Made by a program: the position numbers and the translations under genes. Source: a virus (lineage: Duplodnaviria > Heunggongvirae > Uroviricota > Caudoviricetes). Taken from it: 22,431 bases of DNA. A model generated the notes under the pieces. It was given only the letters and a program-made list of their open reading frames with translations, did no database searches and had not been told where the DNA came from. This document shows, in pieces, positions 1 to 13,147 of this stretch. Location: IMG/VR virus record IMGVR_UViG_2529292726_000014, positions 1-22,431 of that record; one strand, written 5' to 3'. The stretch's first letter is position 1. Every line of letters begins with the position of its first letter.

Positions 1-453
1 ATCGAGGATGAAATACGGGGATTACCGGAGTCAGAGCGTCTTGCCGTCAGGCAGCAGCGAAGCAAAGTGTTACTGACGTCGCTGCATGAATGGATGGTGG
101 AGAAGAATGGTACGCTGTCGAAAAAATCCAGACTGGGCGAAGCGTTCAGCTATGTACTGAATCAGTGGGATGCCCTCTGTTATTACAGTGATGACGGTCT
201 GGCGGAGGCGGATAATAATGCTGCGGAAAGAGCGCTTCGTGCAGTCTGTCTCGGAAAGAAAAACTTTATGTTCTTTGGCAGCGATCACGGCGGCGAGCGT
301 GGAGCACTGTTGTACGGGCTGATCGGCACCTGCCGTCTGAACGGTATCGATCCGGAAGCGTATCTGCGCCATATCCTGAGCGTACTGCCGGAATGGCCTT
401 CCAACCGAGTTGATGAACTCCTGCCATGGAACGTAGTACTCACCAATAAATAA
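1..453 (+). CDS. IS66-family transposase, C-terminal fragment (5' end lies outside the window)
   Basis: Frame 1 is open from position 1 to TAA at 451-453. The translation ...RALRAVCLGKKNFMFFGSDHGGERGALLYGLIGTCRLNGIDPEAYLRHILSVLPEWPSNRVDELLPWNV matches the conserved C-terminal region of IS66-family transposases as I recall it. The GTG at 67 used by the ORF track is internal. Confidence 0.8.
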   Translation: MEDEIRGLPESERLAVRQQRSKVLLTSLHEWMVEKNGTLSKKSRLGEAFSYVLNQWDALCYYSDDGLAEADNNAAERALRAVCLGKKNFMFFGSDHGGERGALLYGLIGTCRLNGIDPEAYLRHILSVLPEWPSNRVDELLPWNVVLTNK

Positions 454-483
454 GCGTCAATACGGTGCTCCGTTGACGCTTAC
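1..483 (+). mobile_element. Right end of an IS66-family insertion sequence (partial, truncated by window edge)
   Basis: The transposase stop is followed by a hairpin (GCGTCAA 454-460 / TTGACGC 473-479) and the sequence ends CGCTTAC at 477-483. Its reverse complement GTAAGCG... is what I recall as the typical IS66-family terminal inverted-repeat start. Exact boundary is uncertain by a few bp. Confidence 0.6.
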
Positions 484-680
484 CACAATGGAGGGGAGTA
501 CCATGAAACTGTTCTCTACACGAGACAGAGTGGTGGTGATGTGTTGATTATCGGCGTATATGCGCACAGGACGCGCTATGACAATGTTTTATGCGGGTAC
601 ACCAATCACATGTATCTGGTGTGATAAATCGCGTTACATGACCTCTCATGTTGTGCTGGTGGTTATCACGACGTTCTGAA

Positions 681-737
681 TCTGGCTTTTGTCTGATATT
701 TTGCGACAAGTACGCGCGCGTAACATCGAAATTATCG
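681..737. repeat. Left copy of an imperfect ~57-bp direct repeat (core GACAAGTACGCGC at 705-717)
   Basis: TCTGGCTTTTGTCTGATATTTTGCGACAAGTACGCGCGCGTAACATCGAAATTATCGG aligns with 3394-3452, sharing a 13-nt identical core plus flanking matches. Confidence 0.6.
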
Positions 738-1057
738 GATGGCGTATGTTGCTGGCAAGATAAAGTCGGCGTAATACAAAGGCGTTACTTGATAGCAGCA
801 AGATTACAACAATGGTTGTTGAATTTGAGCGATGTAAGGAATTGATTTAGGGAGGCGCTGATGGCTAAAAAGTTCCACTACCAGCGGATGAATGCGCCAG
901 CGATGGCCGTTTGGTAGTAAAAGAGGAGCCATTCCTCAATCAGTTGAATACATTATGCCAACTAAATGGGTGGGGGCACTGTGTGGGTATTCAGCGGTGA
1001 CGGTATTTTTTAAGCCAAGGACTATCCGTAGCAGGGGGACTCATTTTGAAATATTTA

Positions 1058-1495
1058 TCATATGTAACTTATTATTTTAGATAAAGATTTCCAGTTAAAG
1101 AAAAAAGTTATCATTGATATAATCAAATATGCCCCTGCGAGTAGCAGGGCATAATAATCCAGAGGCAGATTGCTGACAACAGGGGCAAACATCGAGATCA
1201 TTGCTAATAGGCAGGCTGTGATCAGCGTAGTTCCTGTATCAAAAAGCCCCTCAATAATGCCTTTTAGTACTCCGTTACTTTTTAGAGCGCCTACAATTCC
1301 CTTTGAACTATCAAAGCTACTTAGCATGGTGACTGATGCCAAAACAAAACCAAAGAGAACTCCAGAAATAGTTGAAAGAGCACCAGCAGCCGAAATGACA
1401 GCATTGTGATCTAGGTCGTGTAAAAAATGGGCACCAGCAATAGCCATAGCTAGAGCAAACAATGACTTGGCAGCAAACAATTTCCGAGAACTCAT
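1058..1495 (-). CDS. Small polytopic membrane protein (145 aa, about 3-4 predicted TM helices); candidate effector of a two-gene module
   Basis: ATG at 1495 with an AGGAA Shine-Dalgarno about 9 nt upstream, 12 bp after the stop of the upstream gene. Hydrophobic segments at roughly residues 10-24, 32-60, 88-105 and 113-134. AT-rich relative to the lambda-like genes. Confidence 0.6.
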   Translation of the reverse strand: MSSRKLFAAKSLFALAMAIAGAHFLHDLDHNAVISAAGALSTISGVLFGFVLASVTMLSSFDSSKGIVGALKSNGVLKGIIEGLFDTGTTLITACLLAMISMFAPVVSNLPLDYYALLLAGAYLIISMITFFFNWKSLSKIISYI

Positions 1496-1507
1496 AATGT
1501 ATTCCTG

Positions 1508-2593
1508 TTACGTTTGACTAACCAAATAGTACTGGGTTAGATACCTAAGGTTGTCATTCTTTGCTTGTAGCATAGCATTTTTAACGTCAGTATCGGTCGG
1601 ATACCCATCTGCTTGGATAGGCACCATCTTCTTTACCGTAAGAACTTCGTCTACAAGACTTTTCTTCTTTTTATCGCCCTGAGCAACAACATTTGCTTTC
1701 TCAAAAGTTAAACGACCATCACCACCAGGGAACTTTTCTAGCATCTCCTTAAGGCTTTTTTTAACGTCATCCTCAAGCCATCCCTTTGCTTTTCTTTTTA
1801 ATGGAGAATGTCCGCGTAACGAAATAGTCAGGTGGCTTGAACTGGTGCCTCTGATCATCTCAATCATCTGATTCGCGAACATTCCATCGAGTTGATACTG
1901 TGCGGCATTGAAGTTTCTTGGGATGGCCACAGAAATCTCGCAGCTTCTTAGATTGGATCCAGTTTCGAGTAGTTCTTTGATGCTTTCTTCTTTCCAAATG
2001 GCTTCAAAAGAAACAGGGACTCCGCGATCACTGGAGTTGAAAAGAAGGAAGGCTAAGTCACTATGGCGTGGACCTAAATGATTTAAAGACAATACTAGAA
2101 TGTCTGTCTGAGGATAATAAATAAAGTATGTACGTTCTGAAAGAGTCTTTGCCCCGGCTAGAGGGATTTTCTCTTCCACCCACTCTTTATCTGTAATATA
2201 TGCCAGTGTTGCGCTTTTTCTTCTTCGAGACATGAATCCGAAGTAGGAGCCATCCTCGGGTGAGATGTCTAGAAAATGAATTTTAAGTTCTCTTTCACCA
2301 AAGTCTGCATAGTGGGTCATCTTGAAGTCTTTAGAACACCGATCATACAGATTTTTAAAGGCCTCTGCGGTTAACCCCTTGTTACTAGTGCGAATATTCT
2401 CAGAGCTTGTGTAAAAGCCCACCCTTACAGATTTCAAACTTTGATCTTTTGGTGCCACAGTCATTTGAGCTCCATTGTACTCTGCGAAAGTTTTTGCACA
2501 CCTTGAAATCAAAATCTCCATGTCAGTCACGAGAAAATAACTATGGATGAAACCCATCAAAGGCATTGAATACAGGTGGCTTTTGAGAATCAT
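1508..2593 (-). CDS. Hypothetical 361-aa soluble protein, first gene of a two-gene operon; no family recognised by eye
   Basis: Long uninterrupted minus-strand ORF in an AT-rich segment, ending 12 bp before the membrane-protein gene. No canonical nuclease, ATPase, cyclase or HEPN motif recognised by inspection. Start could be an internal Met (M10, M13 or M25) rather than 2593. Confidence 0.6.
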   Translation of the reverse strand: MILKSHLYSMPLMGFIHSYFLVTDMEILISRCAKTFAEYNGAQMTVAPKDQSLKSVRVGFYTSSENIRTSNKGLTAEAFKNLYDRCSKDFKMTHYADFGERELKIHFLDISPEDGSYFGFMSRRRKSATLAYITDKEWVEEKIPLAGAKTLSERTYFIYYPQTDILVLSLNHLGPRHSDLAFLLFNSSDRGVPVSFEAIWKEESIKELLETGSNLRSCEISVAIPRNFNAAQYQLDGMFANQMIEMIRGTSSSHLTISLRGHSPLKRKAKGWLEDDVKKSLKEMLEKFPGGDGRLTFEKANVVAQGDKKKKSLVDEVLTVKKMVPIQADGYPTDTDVKNAMLQAKNDNLRYLTQYYLVSQT

Positions 2594-2944
2594 CCTAACC
2601 TGGTGACGGTGGTTCGCATATCCTGATGGATGATCAGTGATTAATCAATGCGCCAAGCAGATGTGTCTATGTGTTTGTTAATCATTGCATGACAGTAGAT
2701 CGACATGGGAGATCACGTTATATAGTTGAATTGTTAGGATATCCATGCACCGATCAACTGACTAGGCTGATGTGCTTTTTAGCAGGTGCCATATAGTAGT
2801 TAGGCGGTTCTGTGAAATGATTACTGTTCCAGCATAACTGCGGCATAAAGCGGTGCTATATAAGCTATTTGCTGGCGGATTTAGTCTTCACCGTTAATAT
2901 ATGTAGTGACTATTTGACAGAGTGTTAGTTCACGGACACTTTTT

Positions 2945-3053
2945 GTTGGTTCAAAATGAGTTGATGTTGGTTCAATATTTTAGAAAAAACACAATAAAAA
3001 CAACGCTCTTTACAAATTGAACCAACTGAACCAACTGAACCAACTGAACCAAC
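2945..3053. repeat. Iteron-like array: two inverted copies GTTGGTTCAA (2945-2954, 2966-2975) and about 3.9 tandem copies of GAACCAACT (3019-3053)
   Basis: Read directly from the sequence. Lies in the ~500-bp divergent intergenic region between the minus-strand operon (start 2593) and the PerC-like gene (start 3090). Confidence 0.75.
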
Positions 3054-3089
3054 ACCTTTTTGCTTATCTATATAATCTGAGAGGCAGAA

Positions 3090-3371
3090 ATGATAAGGGA
3101 CAGGAAAGCTGAAGAGCTGGAGTCAAAAGGGCTATACCGGAGAGCTGCCGCACGATGGATGGAAGTCATGCTGTTATGCACCGAGGACGATGATCGGGAA
3201 TGGATAAAGCGCCGCCGTGAAACGTGTCTGGAGAACGTGAAGCGCCCGCCCGTGAAGGTTGAGGAATTTGGCGACCTGCATAAAGCTGTTACCGAAACGC
3301 AACACCGCATGGGGATAGCGCAACCGAACGGTAACGCCTTCCGGTTAAATGGCGGCAAGAGGCAAAGGTAG
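3090..3371 (+). CDS. PerC-family transcriptional regulator (Pch-like)
   Basis: 93-aa product MIRDRKAEELESKGLYRRAAARWMEVM...KAVTETQHRMGIAQPNGNAF matches the conserved PerC/Pch pattern (KAEELE.KGL.RRAAARW, MGI.QPNG) as I recall it. GAGAGG precedes the ATG. Confidence 0.75.
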   Translation: MIRDRKAEELESKGLYRRAAARWMEVMLLCTEDDDREWIKRRRETCLENVKRPPVKVEEFGDLHKAVTETQHRMGIAQPNGNAFRLNGGKRQR

Positions 3372-3375
3372 ACCA

Positions 3376-3397
3376 CCAGAGGGAAATCATCCTCTGG
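3376..3397 (+). terminator. Possible hairpin terminator downstream of the PerC-like gene
   Basis: CCAGAGG (3376-3382) / CCTCTGG (3391-3397) 7-bp stem with 8-nt loop, followed by a T-rich but interrupted tract. Confidence 0.3.
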
Positions 3398-3452
3398 CTG
3401 GCGGTTTCTGGTATTTCGGGACAAGTACGCGCACGCGTAGCACCCAATCGGT
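3394..3452. repeat. Right copy of the imperfect ~57-bp direct repeat (core GACAAGTACGCGC at 3419-3431)
   Basis: TCTGGCTGGCGGTTTCTGGTATTTCGGGACAAGTACGCGCACGCGTAGCACCCAATCGG aligns with 681-737. Confidence 0.6.
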
Positions 3453-3668
3453 GAGGAAATAGCGGCGACCTGAATGGTCAAAATCACAACGCAGCTATCC
3501 CCGTAAGCATCGCTTAACGGAATAGCAGTAACCTGAATCCAGTGGGGAGGGGGTAGTCAAATCTCTACAGGCCTGACTATCCGGGACTGCCCGCCCCATC
3601 GTTTTTTTATACCCGCGAAAAATGAAATTTAATCCGGGCGTGTTTCATCCTTCCAGAGGGTATGACGT

Positions 3669-3854
3669 ATGACACCACGCGAAATAGCCTTATTGACCAT
3701 CGCCAAACTTGAGCACGGAGGCCACCAGCTTACACAGGCAGATCAACGGGAGATAGAACGATCAGTTAATGCCGATATAGCCCGGCGCGACAGGTTCCGC
3801 GAAATGATGCGAGCACCTGCCTACCAGTGGAAGAAGCCAGCGCCGCGCAGGTAG
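3669..3854 (+). CDS. Small prophage protein (61 aa), possibly YdfA/DUF1391-like
   Basis: ORF with GAGGG upstream. Family assignment is from memory only and is weak. Confidence 0.45.
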   Translation: MTPREIALLTIAKLEHGGHQLTQADQREIERSVNADIARRDRFREMMRAPAYQWKKPAPRR

Positions 3855-3974
3855 ATATGGGATTATTCCACATGTAACTTATGCGTATTAAGCAAATTTC
3901 CTTTATTCACCTTTACAGAATTGTGAGTACGTCAGTATCGTTATCCTTCCGATTCGCATTTATTCAGGATTTGC

Positions 3975-4517
3975 ATGTACCAGCTAAAGATAACCATCCG
4001 AGACAGCAAACCACCTATATGGCGGCGTGTGCTGGTTCCAGAGCAAATCCCCTTTAGTAAACTTCATGCCGTGATCCAGTTAGCTTTTGGCTGGAATGAC
4101 GAACACCTGTATATGTTCGAGAAAGGGCGTAAAGGTGATCCAGGTAGCGAGTATCGCGTATGGGGTGAGGATGAAAGCATGGGTAACGCGGCAATCACGC
4201 CACTATGGGCGGCGCTCCAGAATGAGGGTGACAAGCTGGTTTACACGTATGACTTTGGCGACTGGTGGGATTGCGTCATTGTGCTGGAGAAGCAAACACA
4301 CGATACGAGTAATCAGCCCATTAGCTGCCTGCGTGGGAAAGGCACCACCCCGGCGGAAAACTCAGGCGGCTTGCATGGTTACAATGAATTGCTATTACAG
4401 GCCAGAGAGTCTGATAATCCTGAGCAGGCCGAGATCCACAATTTCCTGATGCTGGATATTGAACGCCGGGTTTACGACCTGAGCCGCATCAACGACAGAT
4501 TGCAGGCTATTAACTGA
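3975..4517 (+). CDS. pRiA4b ORF-3-like family protein (180 aa)
   Basis: N-terminal pattern YQLKITIRDSKPPIWRRVLVP...LHAVIQLAFGWNDEHLYMF and later DFGDWW are characteristic of the plasmid pRiA4b ORF-3-like family as I recall it. Confidence 0.6.
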   Translation: MYQLKITIRDSKPPIWRRVLVPEQIPFSKLHAVIQLAFGWNDEHLYMFEKGRKGDPGSEYRVWGEDESMGNAAITPLWAALQNEGDKLVYTYDFGDWWDCVIVLEKQTHDTSNQPISCLRGKGTTPAENSGGLHGYNELLLQARESDNPEQAEIHNFLMLDIERRVYDLSRINDRLQAIN

Positions 4518-4869
4518 CCCGCATGTATTCACCTGATATTGCGTTATCAGCGCCGCCAGTATCGCGCATAACAGCACAATGACCGGGTAAACCGTAACGC
4601 ACGACCGTTGCGTTAGTCTCACCGCCGCGCCTTATCTGGCGCGATTCATACACTGTCACCCGCTCAAGCAGTCCACCAGCTACCATGCTTTCCAGTGTGC
4701 GCCGGGTTGATTCGAGCTGGTGACGCTTATCGAACGACACCATGCCATGAAGCAGGTAGGCCACACCCGACACATCGAACGGCGGCGCACCAATCTCACC
4801 AGTCACCCATTCGAGGTTATCCGGTTCAAAGTAGCTAAGTATCTCTTTTTTGCGGCTGGTCATTCTCAT
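4510..4869 (-). CDS. Hypothetical protein (119 aa), possible winged-helix DNA-binding protein
   Basis: ORF convergent with and overlapping by 8 bp the preceding gene. C-terminal segment TRRTLESMVAGGLLERVTVYESRQIRRGG resembles a winged HTH. Start may be M3. Confidence 0.4.
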   Translation of the reverse strand: MRMTSRKKEILSYFEPDNLEWVTGEIGAPPFDVSGVAYLLHGMVSFDKRHQLESTRRTLESMVAGGLLERVTVYESRQIRRGGETNATVVRYGLPGHCAVMRDTGGADNAISGEYMRVS

Positions 4870-5018
4870 GGCTGGCTGATTCCTTATTGTGGGATAGCAC
4901 TATCATACAATAAGTGGGTTAAAGGGAGAGCGTTACCGCCTGATATGCTGTATGAATAACAACCAAATTTCAGGGGCGGAAAAAGATATGGGGGTACTTT
5001 TGGGGGTGTCTATAAAAA

Positions 5019-5718
5019 ATGAACAATAAAAAAGGCAACAAAAACAAAGCTTATCGCCTATGTGTATTGTTCCTATTATCACCGTATCGCCCGAAAGATG
5101 ATGGCTATGTGGCACAGGGGCGCGAGCTAAAACAGCCCGTCATGGCCCCGCTGATTTCTTACTTTCGTGATGCGCGTAAATCACTGGGAATAACGTCAAA
5201 ACAGATAGCGGAAGCCACCGGAAAGAAAAACATGGCTTCGCACTGGTTTGGTACCAGTCAGTGGCAGTTACCGAACGAGGGTGATTACAACAAATTGCAG
5301 GCGTTGTTTGCGCGTGTTGCGGCAGAAAAAACATCAGCGCGGGGAACTGGAAAAACCACACCACCAGCTGGTCAGCACATACAGTGAGCTGAACCGGCAG
5401 TATACGGAATTGCTGAGTGAATATAAAAATTTGCGGCGGTATTTCGGTGTGACGGCGCAGGTTCCGTACACCGATGTCTGGACGCATAAACCGGTGCAGT
5501 ACTATCCAGGGAAACATCCGTGCGAAAAACCGGCAGAAATGCTGCAGCAGATAATCAACGCGAGCAGTCGTCCGGGAGACCTGGTTGCAGATTTTTTTAT
5601 GGGTTCAGGTTCAACGGTAAAAGCGGCGATGGCACTGGGGCGTTGTGCGATTGGTGTTGAGCTGGAGACAGGACGTTTTGAACAGACAGCCAGGGAAGTT
5701 CAGGATTTAATCGTTTGA
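5019..5718 (+). pseudogene. DNA N6-adenine methyltransferase, split by a frameshift (possibly also lacking a canonical DPPY motif)
   Basis: C-terminal half (frame of 5248..5718) has HPCEKPAEMLQQIINASSRPGDLVADFFMGSGSTVKAAMALGRCAIGVELE, i.e. the HP.QKP and F.GSG.T AdoMet-binding motifs of beta-class phage methyltransferases. The N-terminal portion is in a different frame (5019..5387). The frames switch near the A6 run at 5324-5329 or the A5 run at 5351-5355. Confidence 0.55.
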
Positions 5719-5767
5719 AACGGATGAGATTGCAGAATTAATTACGCACCATTATTATTCTGCTCCC

Positions 5768-5843
5768 GGCCCTTTAGCTCAGTGGTGAGAGCGAGCGACT
5801 CATAATCGCCAGGTCGCTGGTTCAAATCCAGCAAGGGCCACCA
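5768..5843 (+). tRNA. tRNA with CAU anticodon, ileX/ileZ-like (tRNA-Ile2, lysidine) rather than Met
   Basis: Manual cloverleaf: acceptor GGCCCTT/AAGGGCC, anticodon loop CTCATAA, T-loop TTCAAAT, 3' CCA encoded. Very similar to E. coli ileX as I recall it. Confidence 0.8.
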
Positions 5844-5844
5844 A

Positions 5845-5921
5845 CCGTCACCAGTTCATCAGGAAAGAGCGTCAACCCTTTAAGTTGAGTGTGCGAGGTT
5901 CGAGTCCCCGGTGGCGGTCCA
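5845..5921 (+). tRNA. Atypical or degenerate tRNA-like gene (anticodon loop CCTTTAA; UUU if canonical, Lys-like)
   Basis: A cloverleaf can be drawn (acceptor CCGTCAC/GTGGCGG with one G-U pair, T-loop TTCGAGT, CCA encoded) but with C8, C33 and one T-stem mismatch. May be a pseudo-tRNA. Confidence 0.4.
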
Positions 5922-5923
5922 GT

Positions 5924-5999
<76 letters not shown>

Positions 6000-6002
6000 T
6001 AT

Positions 6003-6077
<75 letters not shown>

Positions 6078-6144
6078 GCATTTGCAACAAGCCTTATTGT
6101 ATTGCGGCACTGGTGTATTTTTTATTACGTGGGAGCAGGTTGTT

Positions 6145-6175
6145 TTGAAAAAGCATTCTGTTCTCTGGCTATAAT
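6145..6175 (+). promoter_or_regulatory. Candidate sigma70 late promoter (pR'-like): -35 TTGAAA (6145-6150), -10 TATAAT (6170-6175)
   Basis: Perfect -10 hexamer and near-consensus -35 with a long (18-19 bp) spacer. Lies about 180-200 nt upstream of a strong terminator, as lambda pR' does relative to tR'. Confidence 0.4.
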
Positions 6176-6352
6176 TTGAGGCCAGGTGTAGCCTCAGTGC
6201 TGATTTTTTTACGACAGCAGAATGGTGCATTATCGGTGGAGATTTTGTATTTCCTGGCAGGGTCGGTGATGCATCATTCCGATGTTGTAAGCATCGCTCA
6301 GAATAACGTTGAGATTAATCGCGTACTAAGCAAAACCTGGAAATACATCCTT

Positions 6353-6379
6353 AACCGCCGCACCAGGCGGTTTTTTTTA
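6353..6379 (+). terminator. Rho-independent terminator (tR'-like)
   Basis: AACCGCC / GGCGGTT stem with GCACCA loop followed by T8. Confidence 0.6.
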
Positions 6380-6393
6380 TTCATTTTTTTCAT

Positions 6394-6416
6394 GGCTCGC
6401 TACGGCGGGCCTTTTT
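6394..6416 (+). terminator. Second hairpin terminator
   Basis: GGCTCGC / GCGGGCC stem (one G-U pair) with a short loop followed by T5. Confidence 0.4.
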
Positions 6417-6502
6417 CATATCCTCGCCACACCCGGCGCATATCACATCAAATAACGCCGCGCAAAAGGCATCTGCGGGTGCCTTTGACGGGGTGTTTTT
6501 AC

Positions 6503-6524
6503 GGGCCGCTGGTGGCCCTTTTTT
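6503..6524 (+). terminator. Hairpin terminator immediately upstream of the lysis genes
   Basis: GGGCC / GGCCC stem with GCTGGT loop followed by T6. Preceded by another stem AAAGGCA/TGCCTTT at about 6466-6487. Confidence 0.5.
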
Positions 6525-6543
6525 ATTTACAGGAGAAAAACGT

Positions 6544-6933
6544 ATGTCTGAACCCTTATCCGGTTCCGGCACGGCTGCGGCGCTCGGTGGGGCGACGGTG
6601 TACGGGCTGTTTACCGGAACGGATTTCGGGATTGTGTTTGGTGCGTTCGCCGGGGCGTTATTTGTGGCAACGATGCCGCAGGCGCTTTCAGTCTGGCGTG
6701 TGGTGGCGCATTTTTTGGTGTCGTTTATCGTCGGCGTGCTGGGGGCGCGCGTGCTGTCAGCCTGGATTGCATCAAAAACAGGGTATGACGGTACATCGGC
6801 AGATGCGCTGTGTGCGGTGCTGGTATCGGTGGTGTCGGTGAAGATTCTGTCGTTCATCCACCAGCAGGATATTGCATCGCTGGTGTCCGGTGTGTTCTCC
6901 CGTCTGCGGGGTGGAGGCGGTAATGTTAAGTAA
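6544..6933 (+). CDS. Putative holin (129-aa membrane protein)
   Basis: ATG at 6544 preceded by AGGAG. Glycine-rich product with 2-3 hydrophobic helices, first gene of the lysis cluster. The upstream in-frame ATG at 6493 overlaps the terminator and is rejected. Confidence 0.5.
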   Translation: MSEPLSGSGTAAALGGATVYGLFTGTDFGIVFGAFAGALFVATMPQALSVWRVVAHFLVSFIVGVLGARVLSAWIASKTGYDGTSADALCAVLVSVVSVKILSFIHQQDIASLVSGVFSRLRGGGGNVK

Positions 6934-7198
6934 CCTTCCCGGATTACTGAATGTGGTGTTAAGCACGGTTATCGTGCTGACGCTCTTTTTTTATCGTCGT
7001 GGTGATTCCAGACATAAACCGCTGATGTCGTGGCTGGCCTGGCTGCTGATGCTGCTGTATGCCTTTGCGCCACTTTGTTATCTGTGTGGTCGCTTTCCAC
7101 CCGGTAACTGGCTGGTCGTCCTGATTAACCTGGTGTTCTGCGTGCTGGTGATACGAGCACGCGGGAACGTATCAAAAATCCTTTCATTACGGAGGTGA
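6923..7198 (+). CDS. Second small membrane protein of the lysis cassette (92 aa; holin or antiholin partner)
   Basis: ATG at 6923 preceded by GGAGG, overlapping the previous gene's stop. Two to three TM segments. Confidence 0.5.
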   Translation: MLSNLPGLLNVVLSTVIVLTLFFYRRGDSRHKPLMSWLAWLLMLLYAFAPLCYLCGRFPPGNWLVVLINLVFCVLVIRARGNVSKILSLRR

Positions 7199-7200
7199 GT

Positions 7201-7578
7201 ATGCCCGGTAAATTCAGATTCAGTCGTCGAAGTGAGAAAAATCTGGAGGGCGTCAAACCACAGCTGGTTGCTGTTGTTCGCCGTGCGCTGGAGCTGACGG
7301 AGGTTGACTTCGGTATTACGGAAGGCCTGCGCAGTAAGTATCGCCAGAAGCAGCTGGTCGCGGAAGGGAAAAGCCAGACCATGAACAGCCGCCACCTGAC
7401 CGGTGATGCGGTGGATGTTGTGGCCTACATTGGTAGCCAGGTGTCATGGGACTGGCCTCTGTACGAGAAAATCGCGCAGGCATTTAAGCAGGCTGCCGCA
7501 GAGCTGGGAACTGCCATCGAATGGGGCGGGGACTGGAAAACACTGAAAGACGGGCCTCACTTTCAGTTGAAGCGCTAA
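7201..7578 (+). CDS. Endolysin, peptidase M15 family (L-alanyl-D-glutamate peptidase type)
   Basis: GGAGG then ATG at 7201. Motifs SRHLTGDAVD, DW, and GPHF near the C-terminus resemble zinc-dependent M15 endolysins such as the phage T5 lysin (from memory). Confidence 0.7.
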   Translation: MPGKFRFSRRSEKNLEGVKPQLVAVVRRALELTEVDFGITEGLRSKYRQKQLVAEGKSQTMNSRHLTGDAVDVVAYIGSQVSWDWPLYEKIAQAFKQAAAELGTAIEWGGDWKTLKDGPHFQLKR

Positions 7579-7592
7579 TAACCAGGTGGTTT

Positions 7593-7775
7593 ATGAGCCG
7601 AAAACACTGGACACACAGAATGCCGCGAACGGCGGCGAAATGGGCACTGGTAGCGATACTGGTGCCTTTTTTCCTGGTGGGATGCGTTAGCCTGGATAAG
7701 GTGCGCCAGCTTTTCGATACGGCCTCGCAGGTCTGCGAAATTGTCGAAAGTGCCAGGCAGTGTATGCAGAACTGA
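7593..7775 (+). CDS. Small lipoprotein (60 aa), possible Rz1-like o-spanin with no recognisable i-spanin partner
   Basis: AGGTGG then ATG at 7593. Signal peptide plus lipobox LVGC, last gene of the lysis cluster. Confidence 0.5.
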   Translation: MSRKHWTHRMPRTAAKWALVAILVPFFLVGCVSLDKVRQLFDTASQVCEIVESARQCMQN

Positions 7776-7862
7776 TCGCCTGTAAGAGCAGAATATTGTT
7801 GAATCTAAATTTACTTTGAACAGTGGCCCGGATGGAAAGGGCATCTAAATAGGAGCAGAAAA

Positions 7863-8072
7863 ATGTTAACTGTAAAAGTCATGTCTCAAAATGGTGGGGA
7901 AGAGCTCCATTGCGGGCGTAGCATTGGCTATCATCCAGAGCAGCGGAGTATTGCCGTATCGGGAAAGGATGGGAAAGTCATTCTGAAAGATGGAGATATT
8001 GCTTATGTAATGAACCAAAACGCTCAAATAATATCTGTTTATCGGCCCAATAATAGTCAGAAAAACATTTGA
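7863..8072 (+). CDS. Hypothetical small protein (69 aa) in an AT-rich moron
   Basis: AGGAG 8 nt upstream of ATG. AT-rich codon usage distinct from flanking genes. Confidence 0.45.
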   Translation: MLTVKVMSQNGGEELHCGRSIGYHPEQRSIAVSGKDGKVILKDGDIAYVMNQNAQIISVYRPNNSQKNI

Positions 8073-8195
8073 ATTTCGCAAGTCCAAAGTTCAGTGGTGA
8101 TCGTTATCAACTAATTGAAATAACAAGCTTATGTTTGTGTAATTGGTGATATAGCATGTTAATGCTGAATATCAGCGTCAACATGGAGTTATACA

Positions 8196-8411
8196 ATGGT
8201 TTTTAAACACTATTACGTGAACAAAAATGCTCAGAGCAATGGCGATCATGAGGTGCATGCTGAGGAATGTTCATATCTTCCTGCTGTAGCTAACCGCGAT
8301 TACCTTGGTTACTATAGTGATTGTTCTTCGGCGGTAACAGAGGCAAAGGCCAAAGGATATTCCCGGGTGAATGGTTGCTATTGGTGTGCCAATAAGTGCC
8401 ACACGTCTTAA
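8196..8411 (+). CDS. Hypothetical small cysteine-containing protein (71 aa) in an AT-rich moron
   Basis: GGAG upstream of ATG, five Cys including a C-x2-C pair (CYWC), and a strong terminator immediately downstream. Confidence 0.5.
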   Translation: MVFKHYYVNKNAQSNGDHEVHAEECSYLPAVANRDYLGYYSDCSSAVTEAKAKGYSRVNGCYWCANKCHTS

Positions 8412-8431
8412 TCAATTGTCAATAAACCATA

Positions 8432-8453
8432 AAGGCCGCTCTGCGGCCTTTTT
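8432..8453 (+). terminator. Rho-independent terminator ending the moron
   Basis: GGCCGC / GCGGCC stem with TCT loop followed by T5. Confidence 0.7.
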
Positions 8454-8724
8454 CATGTTAAAAAAGATTGCGGCATTACAGCAGCCCTTCACACTGAGTG
8501 GCTGCGATAATGTGAGAAATAAAAAACCGGCAGGGGAAATCCATTGAAGATTTGCCGGTGGCAAAAAGATGGCCATGCTTTCAACCTTAGTCGCAGGGTT
8601 ACGGAGTGCAACTACGAATGCTGCCGGTATATGGCTGAATGGCGTTTCAATGATGTACGTCATCTTATCTGTAAATGTTAATGATAAAAGCTCTCATTTG
8701 TGCGGGTCCTTCCGGTGGGGTGGC

Positions 8725-8900
8725 CTGCCACGGGGCGGAAGGCGCGCGGGTTTTCGCTATTTATGAAAATTTTCCGGGGAAAATCATGTCGGTACTTCTC
8801 GAACATAACTATTTGTTTTTTCTAATATCGAATCCGTAAAAGGTCCGACATGAAAACGCCTAAAAAAGTCATTTTCGGGCACTTTCATGTCGGACCCTGT
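8725..8900 (+). promoter_or_regulatory. cos site: lambda-like cosN region plus cosB with three Nu1-binding R-site candidates
   Basis: GGGCGGAAGGCGCGCGGGTTTTCGCTATTTATGAAAATTTTCCGG (about 8733-8777) closely matches the lambda cohesive-end region as I recall it. An 11-mer CATGTCGG(T/A)CC occurs at 8785-8795 (direct), 8842-8852 (inverted) and 8886-8896 (direct), just upstream of nu1. Confidence 0.7.
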
Positions 8901-8920
8901 GTTTGTTGTGAGACTGTTTC

Positions 8921-9440
8921 ATGAAGGTTAATAAAAAGAAACTTGCCGAAATTTTCAACGTGGATCCGCGAACGATTGAACGCTGGCAGTCTCAGGGACT
9001 CCCTTGCGTCTCCGGAGGGGGTAAGGGCGTTGAATCTGTATTTGATACCTCCATGGCAATTCAGTGGTATGCGCAGAGGGAGGCTGATATCGAAAATGAA
9101 AAACTCCGTAAAGAGGTTGAGGATTACAGGGCTGCCAGTGAGGCAGATCTCCAGCCTGGGACTATTGAGTACGAACGCCATCGACTTACGCGTGCGCAGG
9201 CCGACGCACAGGAGCTGAAGAATGCCAGAGACTCCGCAGAAGTGGTGGAAACCGCATTCTGTACTTTCGTGCTGTCACGGATCGCAGGTGAAATTGCCAG
9301 TATTCTTGACGGGATCCCTCTCTCGGTACAGCGGCGTTTTCCGGAACTGGAAAACCGACATGTTGATTTCCTGAAACGGGATATCATCAAAGCCATGAAC
9401 AAAGCAGCCGCGCTGGATGAACTGATACCGGGGTTGCTGA

Positions 9441-9466
<26 letters not shown>
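8921..9466 (+). CDS. nu1: Terminase small subunit Nu1
   Basis: From about residue 60 the product matches lambda gpNu1 as recalled. The N-terminal DNA-binding domain is divergent. Confidence 0.9.

Positions 9467-13147
<3,681 letters not shown>

Follow-up and report, generated by a model that had tools for sequence, protein, structure and literature searches.

A conserved structured RNA module between the tRNA cluster and the lysis genes of Escherichia coli lambdoid prophages

Described systems and the studied locus

In the pR'-qut-tR' unit of phage lambda, which gives the 6S RNA, and in the pR'-tR' unit of Stx phages, which gives the small RNA (sRNA) StxS, a promoter is followed by a terminator ahead of the lysis genes, and the terminators have to be overcome by Q-modified polymerase for late expression. 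The binding sites of Q are specific to each Q. We analysed a stretch of DNA of 22,431 nucleotides (IMG/VR record IMGVR_UViG_2529292726_000014, hereafter the window), which comes from a lambdoid prophage of enterotoxigenic E. coli, and within it the unit located between a tRNA cluster and the holin gene. A first-pass annotation had assigned positions 6145-6524 to a pR'/tR' unit, and the locus does share with both described units a promoter-like site with a terminator around 195 nt further on, before the lysis genes. However, in Stx phages pR' and tR' were mapped adjoining Q and upstream of the tRNAs (PMC7547250), where the relatives of the window show another pair of promoter-like site and terminator, while the studied unit follows tRNA-Gly, is found with three Q families and has its promoter hexamers inside a conserved RNA fold.

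Other described RNAs are comparable in part. T4 encodes the stable RNAs C and D (species 1 and 2), which are not tRNAs and are co-transcribed with the T4 tRNA genes; as a possible analogy, they also place a non-tRNA RNA alongside phage tRNA genes. The RNase III hairpins of the lambda late leader and of the T7 early and late RNAs are long, near-perfect duplexes in a phage polycistronic leader, and the hairpin of this study resembles them in duplex length only. The sRNA 3'ETS-leuZ is the 3' external transcribed spacer of the tRNA operon glyW-cysT-leuZ. PasD1, PasD2 and STnc100 (also PasA and PasC) are located in the Q-to-holin interval of E. coli lambdoid prophages; PasD and STnc100 are encoded on the strand of the late genes, measure about 170-200 nt and have a terminator with a U run at their 3' end, although these RNAs follow DUF3927, whereas the RNA of this study follows tRNA-Gly and has no sequence similarity to Pas. 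According to one report, sRNAs lie between the dual terminators of rrn operons (PMC8144298), an arrangement in which a functional RNA likewise forms the tail of a stable-RNA operon and ends at its intrinsic terminator. Unlike these tRNA-operon and rrn trailers, the trailer proposed here has about 300 nt, combines a four-way junction with a 34-bp hairpin and is phage-borne. The structured RNA is apparently undescribed, and belongs with the already known prophage small RNAs and trailers of stable-RNA operons.

A conserved RNA fold around the proposed promoter

We consider it reasonably probable that the interval from tRNA-Gly to the holin gene consists of stacked mosaic modules, in which a structured trailer RNA of the tRNA operon is followed by terminators shielding the lysis genes. 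The RNA module (Table 1) is composed of a tRNA-shaped four-way junction, a hairpin of the size of RNase III substrates and an sRNA-like tail, and its copies were divided in three sequence classes (A-C). Nine loci were aligned, and the core conserved across the recombination breakpoints was converted into a search pattern, which matched 94 viral contigs. In species-representative genomes, no copy was detected with the strict pattern; relaxing it gave seven chance matches and three true copies, from E. ruysiae, Shigella flexneri and E. coli. According to BLAST, 385 of 5,426 complete E. coli genomes (about 7%) contain the module, with 504 copies, all of them chromosomal. The position is also conserved: 98 of 105 hairpin copies share the strand of a tRNA-Gly(UCC) gene and follow it at a distance of 124-143 nt. 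The prophage encoding the LT-IIb toxin (phage SerU-LTIIb, L001 1273-1640 and 3179-3540) has two copies, one of class A and one of class B, each after a tRNA-Gly and before the holin1 gene or its duplicate.

The cloverleaf folds with -39.8 kcal/mol (z -4.9) on the plus strand and -17.9 kcal/mol (z -1.65) on the minus strand. The proposed -35 hexamer (6145-6150) is the apex of arm 2 and the proposed -10 hexamer (6170-6175) is the 5' strand of arm 3, and the core of the closing helix P1, GGCACUG (6106-6112) with CAGUGCU (6195-6201), encloses the whole "promoter". Of 38 distinct sequences, 36-37 have this core (GGCACUG/CAGUGCY) paired, and one copy has a double compensatory change, GGCACCG with CCGGUGCC. 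The enclosed 88-100 nt show the same lowest-energy topology in 11 genuine copies of classes A and B and in class C; the arm sequences differ between the three classes and the topology is kept. In classes A and B, 96 and 95% of the alignment cells are paired, with four and seven compensatory pairs, respectively. The copy L061 (IMGVR_UViG_2547132270_000010, minus strand 440-200) was considered as independent support for P1 and was not counted because it is a chimera formed by deletion: it has no tRNAs, and its tRNA-operon promoter-like site and leader hairpin are followed by the 5' half of tRNA-Thr (p < 0.004), which runs directly into the 3' part of a class B cloverleaf, and after that by the hairpin and a variant-2 tail.

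The G·U-rich hairpin folds with -35.5 kcal/mol (z -5.1) on the plus strand and -18.9 kcal/mol (z -2.45) on the minus strand, and the class C hairpin reaches -48 kcal/mol (z -8.95). Its pairing is present in 98% of the cells (32 distinct sequences) vs 34-57% with slid partners; 15 pairs are altered on one side through G·U, three pairs are altered on both sides, and the apical stem is found in at least three complementary versions. The tail exists in two variants, variant 1 in 34 copies and a longer variant 2 in 58. A stretch of variant 1, CUAAGCAAA.CC.GG.AA.ACA.CUUAAC, is kept even in the divergent class C. The tail with the terminator T1 (6295-6382) shows no strong fold beyond the T1 stem (z -2.0), and the long U run after this stem, with a little-structured stretch before it, is a 3'-end trait of Hfq-type sRNAs. 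T1 closes the module: ACCGCC...GGCGG with a U run is found in all variant-1 copies and in 55 of 58 variant-2 copies. The variant-2 tail (L008 2706-2893 and other loci) has about 175 nt, looks structured and gives a full-length but weak STnc100 match of 18.3 bits, which is sub-threshold; it may be distantly related to STnc100/PasD.

Several known identities were considered for this RNA. ARAGORN reported no tRNA in the cloverleaf, even at 60% thresholds, and there was no match of the Rfam tRNA model in 6070-6560 at E <= 10. Origin of the cloverleaf from a tRNA or pseudo-tRNA was rejected on the ARAGORN result and because classes A-C show no significant similarity to the four neighbouring tRNAs. 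Rfam at gathering thresholds, applied to the window and five related loci, gave only tRNAs and one genuine STnc100 elsewhere, and at E-value thresholds, applied to the unit and a variant-2 locus, gave no family for the module; the best scores of STnc100 (RF02076) were 16.3 and 18.3 bits vs a threshold of 47. The Pas sRNAs of EPEC E2348/69 (PasA, PasB, PasC and PasD; gene coordinates from PMC8550237 Table S6), compared by BLAST with word size 7, had only chance matches of <=14 nt in the unit. A full-text literature search with strings of the core sequence gave no match. PGAP annotates a hypothetical protein of 86 amino acids (WP_000904532.1; L005 7467-7727, L006 7498-7758, window about 6197-6456) which spans T1, T2 and the long hairpin; compared with it, the window shows a 2-nt difference in a T-run. 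The small open reading frame was rejected, since the frame is broken among copies by changes in T-run length and by apical insertions of 1, 2 and 5 nt, and the PGAP call is probably spurious.

The folds could also be debris with no function, decaying duplicated tRNA genes or recombination scars, with terminators left from lost cargo genes. The region is indeed highly mosaic, L061 joins half a tRNA-Thr to the module, and the cluster includes a possibly degenerate tRNA-Lys-like sequence. However, compensatory and G·U-preserving changes hold the pairing at 95-98% across classes that diverged in sequence, the cloverleaf has no significant sequence similarity to the neighbouring tRNAs in any class, and the 504 copies show the same architecture across 385 genomes, so that we regard debris as improbable.

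Table 1. Features of the window around the structured RNA unit, by position.
Feature	Positions	Strand	Basis	Remarks
IS66 transposase 3' end (PF03050, PF13817)	1-483		Pfam	Missing at this spot in 510016
Island right end, including the IS66 fragment	1-5080		E24377A comparison	Right junction set at 5081
PerC	3090-3371		Pfam	Within island right end
PRiA4_ORF3	3975-4517		Pfam	Within island right end
Methyltransferase 3' fragment	5082-5718	+	RefSeq pseudogene L003 19383-20019	PF01555 C-terminal half
Promoter-like TTGCAG-17-TATTAT	5730-5758	+	Read from sequence	Ends 9 nt ahead of first tRNA
tRNA cluster: CAU, Lys(UUU), Thr(UGU), Gly(UCC)	5768-6077	+	ARAGORN
Cloverleaf-like four-way junction	6105-6202	+	Folding, conservation	P1 6105-6113/6194-6202 encloses three hairpin arms
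Conserved U7 run	6204-6210	+	5-8 T in aligned copies	Between cloverleaf and hairpin
G·U-rich hairpin, about 34 bp	6208-6291	+	Folding, covariation	Conserved module core
Mostly unstructured tail, variant 1	6292-6352	+	Alignment	Conserved CUAAGCAAAACCUGGAAAUACAUCCUUAAC
T1, AACCGCC-GCACCA-GGCGGTT	6353-6378	+	Scan; folding -12.4 kcal/mol, z -4.4	7-bp stem 6353-6372, T-run 6371-6378
T2, GGCTCGC-TACG-GCGGGCC + T5	6394-6416	+	Scan; folding -14.5 kcal/mol, z -5.0	Hairpin 6394-6411
Cargo-gene (moron) slot	6445-6451		Comparison with L010	TerB-DUF3927 cassette of about 680 bp in relatives
Fourth hairpin, no U tail	6465-6486	+	-20.5 kcal/mol, z -3.6	In conserved pre-holin segment
T3, GGGCC-GCTGGT-GGCCC + T6	6503-6524	+	Scan; folding -10.8 kcal/mol, z -2.3	Hairpin 6503-6518
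Lysis cassette: holin (PF16931), second holin (PF05449), M15 peptidase endolysin	6544-7578	+	Pfam, RefSeq

The site at 6145-6175 had been called a near-consensus promoter. Both hexamers, TTGAAA (6145-6150) and TATAAT (6170-6175), are present and good; the near-consensus character is only partly borne out, with a spacer of 19 bp and with relatives that mostly have TATGAT. Terminators and promoters were scanned in window positions 4000-9000, with shuffled sequences as control, and the consensus scan does not report the site because it takes spacers of 16-18 bp. Promoter-like sites are not enriched in the region (four vs 5.9 +/- 2.4 in shuffles), and the only candidate after the TATAAT hexamer for a -10-like, pause-inducing element is a weak TAGCCT (6189-6194). 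In a set of 52 distinct upstream homologues, TATGAT is the prevalent -10 and the -35 is variable in sequence and spacing. The divergent classes have TGTAAT (B) and TGTGAT (C) as -10, both without the critical A at position 2.

These data bear on a second alternative, that TTGAAA-19-TATAAT is active and drives an independent sRNA gene, with a transcript of about 195 nt from around 6182 to T1, as a cargo-type prophage sRNA; the cloverleaf would then be mainly the terminator structure of the tRNA operon, formed by P1 and U7. The hexamers have 11 of 12 matches in the window, the scan reports TTAAGA-18-TATAAT in strain 504239, and a -10-like hexamer is found in the same register across all classes. 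Moreover, the conserved U run after P1 could end an upstream transcript, a plain hairpin directly abuts the equivalent T-run in the L070-type deletion variant, the tail with T1 resembles the 3' end of an Hfq-type sRNA, and PasD and STnc100 are similarly placed in other prophages. On the other side, the 19-bp spacer is shared by the window and most class A copies, neither sequence nor spacing of the -35 is conserved, the second -10 position is not A in classes B and C, the window site is missed by the consensus scan, and the hexamers are in paired or apical parts of a fold that makes sense only if it is transcribed from upstream. We judge an independent sRNA gene rather unlikely.

The Q gene, its own predicted promoter and terminator, and the inserted island

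Neither Q nor early genes are located in the window, as the first-pass annotation had pointed out: upstream of the unit Pfam gives only the IS66 transposase fragment, PerC, PRiA4_ORF3 and the C-terminal part of a methylase, and the RefSeq annotation of identical DNA in E. coli 510016 agrees. Window positions 484-22431 show 100% identity to this genome (NZ_CP025851.1) with the exception of one IS, an IS21-family element which in 510016 lies within the terminase gene. Since the IS66 fragment is missing from the otherwise identical 510016, the source strain of the window differs upstream.

When Q and the early genes were sought in the wider genome of 510016, both were found upstream, beyond the equivalent of the window. 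The prophage of 510016 adjoins ompW and starts with integrase, excisionase, exonuclease, a LexA-family repressor, a frameshifted cro and replication genes; then follow RusA, Q, a kinase, a PP2C phosphatase and the 5' part of the methyltransferase gene, and it continues with an 18,434-bp island, the 3' part of the methyltransferase gene, the tRNAs and the unit. Q is intact (PF06323, 229 amino acids) and lies about 22 kb upstream of the holin gene because the 18.4-kb island split the methyltransferase gene, in agreement with one of the two options left by the first-pass annotation, a distant Q in a rearranged region. The island (L003 948-19381), inserted with a junction overlap of about 3 bp, contains a tyrosine integrase, a TOPRIM/DUF927 primase, an Icd-like protein, P22-type ejection proteins, PerC and PRiA4_ORF3, and it looks like a satellite-like element residing in a prophage. 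In E24377A, whose prophage segment is 99.6% identical and has no island, the DNA methyltransferase gene is whole (1050 nt), the distance from Q to the holin gene is 4.1 kb, and the segment from the tRNAs to the holin (5700-6560) matches the window with 99.7% identity. In 504239, only about 1 kb separates Q from the holin gene, in the order Q, 210 bp, tRNAs, unit and holin.

Some side observations concern these prophages. A serine/threonine kinase and PP2C phosphatase pair between Q/pR' and the methyltransferase gene (L004 26939-28243; L006 3898-5402) is cargo of the late operon. The terminase large subunit gene (window 9441-11366; L003 23742-28083) is an intact open reading frame of 641 amino acids in the window and is interrupted by ISEc10 in 510016, where cro and the DUF968 gene are both frameshifted. 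The terminase interruption and these frameshifts indicate that the 510016 prophage is probably defective.

In 510016, E24377A and 504239, a promoter-like site and a terminator adjoin Q. Its stop codon is followed by a promoter-like TTGCAA-17-TATATT or TACATT, the element GATATTTTGCCG and an intrinsic terminator 50-80 nt further. In 504239, the promoter-like TTGCAA-17-TATATT, the conserved GATATTTTGCCG and the terminator are found within 100 nt of Q, followed by the tRNAs and, last, by the unit; the Q-adjacent arrangement of 510016 and E24377A is alike. A TGnGATATT-type element is conserved after the Q-proximal promoter, and the conserved -10-like GATATTTTGCCG sits where Q-type promoters have the pause signal. 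Because of its position and conservation this site is taken as the pR' candidate, with a predicted promoter. The DUF1133-type Q of other relatives also has a terminator, about 80 nt past its stop codon. No near match to the Q-proximal region was found among deposited phage genomes, Q (PF06323) shows no similarity to lambda Q and belongs to a different Pfam family, and no solved structure was found for either Q type present in these loci.

The unit accompanies at least three unrelated Q types: PF06323, DUF1133/PF06530 and another protein of the "antiterminator Q family". It is therefore not a Q-specific promoter, which would change with Q. A true pR'/tR' unit orphaned from Q, that is, a constitutive late promoter whose short transcript to tR' is extended only by Q, would explain the lambda-like geometry of promoter-like site, strong terminator and lysis genes, as well as a window without Q. 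However, this reading is already contradicted by synteny: Q of the relatives has its own promoter-like site, -10-like element and terminator upstream of the tRNAs, where the Stx-phage pR' and tR' were also mapped, and the unit is linked to tRNA-Gly instead of Q. Furthermore, the unit has no similarity to the lambda pR'-6S region, and its hexamers belong to the conserved RNA fold. The assignment of 6145-6524 to pR'/tR' is thus very hard to maintain, and we give it only a slight chance.

Terminators, mosaic modules and the proposed trailer RNA

In the scanned region, 17 terminator-like sites were found vs 5.5 +/- 2.4 in shuffles. The strong terminator and two further hairpins announced before the holin are real according to scan and folding (T1, T2 and T3), and T3 ends 20 nt ahead of the holin start codon. 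While T1 closes the structured RNA module, T2 is part of a separate mosaic module (6384-6445), which in an O157 prophage is found directly after the last tRNA and is followed by TerB. Window positions 6303-6445 correspond to L010 2716-2859 and positions 6451-6560 to L010 3538-3650, and the intervening cassette is missing in the window; in relation to strain A30, a TerB-DUF3927 cassette of about 680 bp is missing exactly between 6445 and 6451. The segment bearing T3 (6451-6543) is the conserved stretch behind this cassette and precedes various holin types; the T3 motif is found in 85 of 92 related loci, at a varying distance from the hairpin. According to these boundaries, T1, T2 and T3 therefore belong to three mosaic pieces stacked before the lysis genes. 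A DUF3927 gene remnant at 6426-6500 was ruled out, since the segment is downstream of the DUF3927 stop codon.

The tRNA cluster upstream was predicted by ARAGORN. Its CAU-anticodon tRNA is assigned to Met by ARAGORN and to Ile by PGAP. The Rfam tRNA model matches three of the four tRNAs and PGAP annotates three; tRNA-Lys(UUU) at 5845-5921 was reported by ARAGORN only, is under the Rfam tRNA threshold, is unannotated by PGAP in 510016 and may be degenerate. The same slot has an annotated tRNA-Lys or tRNA-Arg in other relatives. The promoter-like site ahead of the cluster is predicted to be the tRNA-operon promoter; its homologue in 504239, TTGCAA-17-TATTAT (L005 7001-7029), was picked up by the promoter scan, and a separate start site, apparently serving the tRNAs, was mapped in an Stx2a prophage by Sy et al. 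2020 (PMC7547250). The scan found no strong terminator between tRNA-Gly and the RNA fold.

According to the trailer reading, the structured RNA would mostly arise as the 3' trailer of the tRNA operon, with transcription starting at the promoter-like site at 5730-5758. The near-perfect long duplex would be an RNase III-type processing site, and the U-rich linker and the cloverleaf could act as tRNA-style processing signals; the U7 run itself may serve as the tail of a leaky terminator or be a target of a nuclease or of Hfq. Processing would free a tail RNA of about 90-100 nt with a terminal stem and a U run, the shape of an Hfq-dependent sRNA. T2 and T3 are the terminators before and behind the slot occupied by TerB-DUF3927 in relatives. 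In the lysogen, T1-T3 would block Q-independent transcription, coming from the tRNA promoter, cargo-gene promoters and the island, from reaching the holin gene, and on induction the polymerase modified by Q at the pR' candidate next to Q would read through them.

Some observations weigh against this reading. Arm 3 (6164-6195) can form two mutually exclusive helices, CUGGCU/GGCCAG and GGCUAUA/UGUAGCC, and both are kept by the same three correlated changes in the L002-type copies. The U run after P1 could terminate the transcripts of the tRNA operon, in which case the hairpin RNA would depend on read-through or on a separate promoter; class A, with the window included, has an acceptable -10 hexamer, in which positions 2 and 6 are A and T, so an internal promoter is possible. 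The collecting pattern fixed many hairpin positions, so part of the hairpin conservation is ascertainment, whereas the covarying and upstream positions were left free. Finally, the upstream context of the window itself is predicted from its sister genome 510016.

More tentatively, and at just short of an even chance, the module would represent an undescribed family of phage-borne structured RNAs, restricted to lambdoid prophages of Escherichia and Shigella and coupled to the tRNA cluster, which may be a processing cassette releasing a regulatory RNA or a tRNA mimic that engages host tRNA-directed enzymes.

For the annotation of prophages, sigma-70 hexamers and a terminator upstream of lysis genes are insufficient to call a pR'; adjacency to Q and co-variation with the Q type are the tests, and the absence of Q from a window can merely mean that an island was inserted in the prophage. 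Toxins and small RNAs are known to be encoded between Q and the holin gene in E. coli prophages, and the module RNA, which is not in Rfam and is carried by about 7% of the complete E. coli genomes, is a concrete candidate for transcript mapping.

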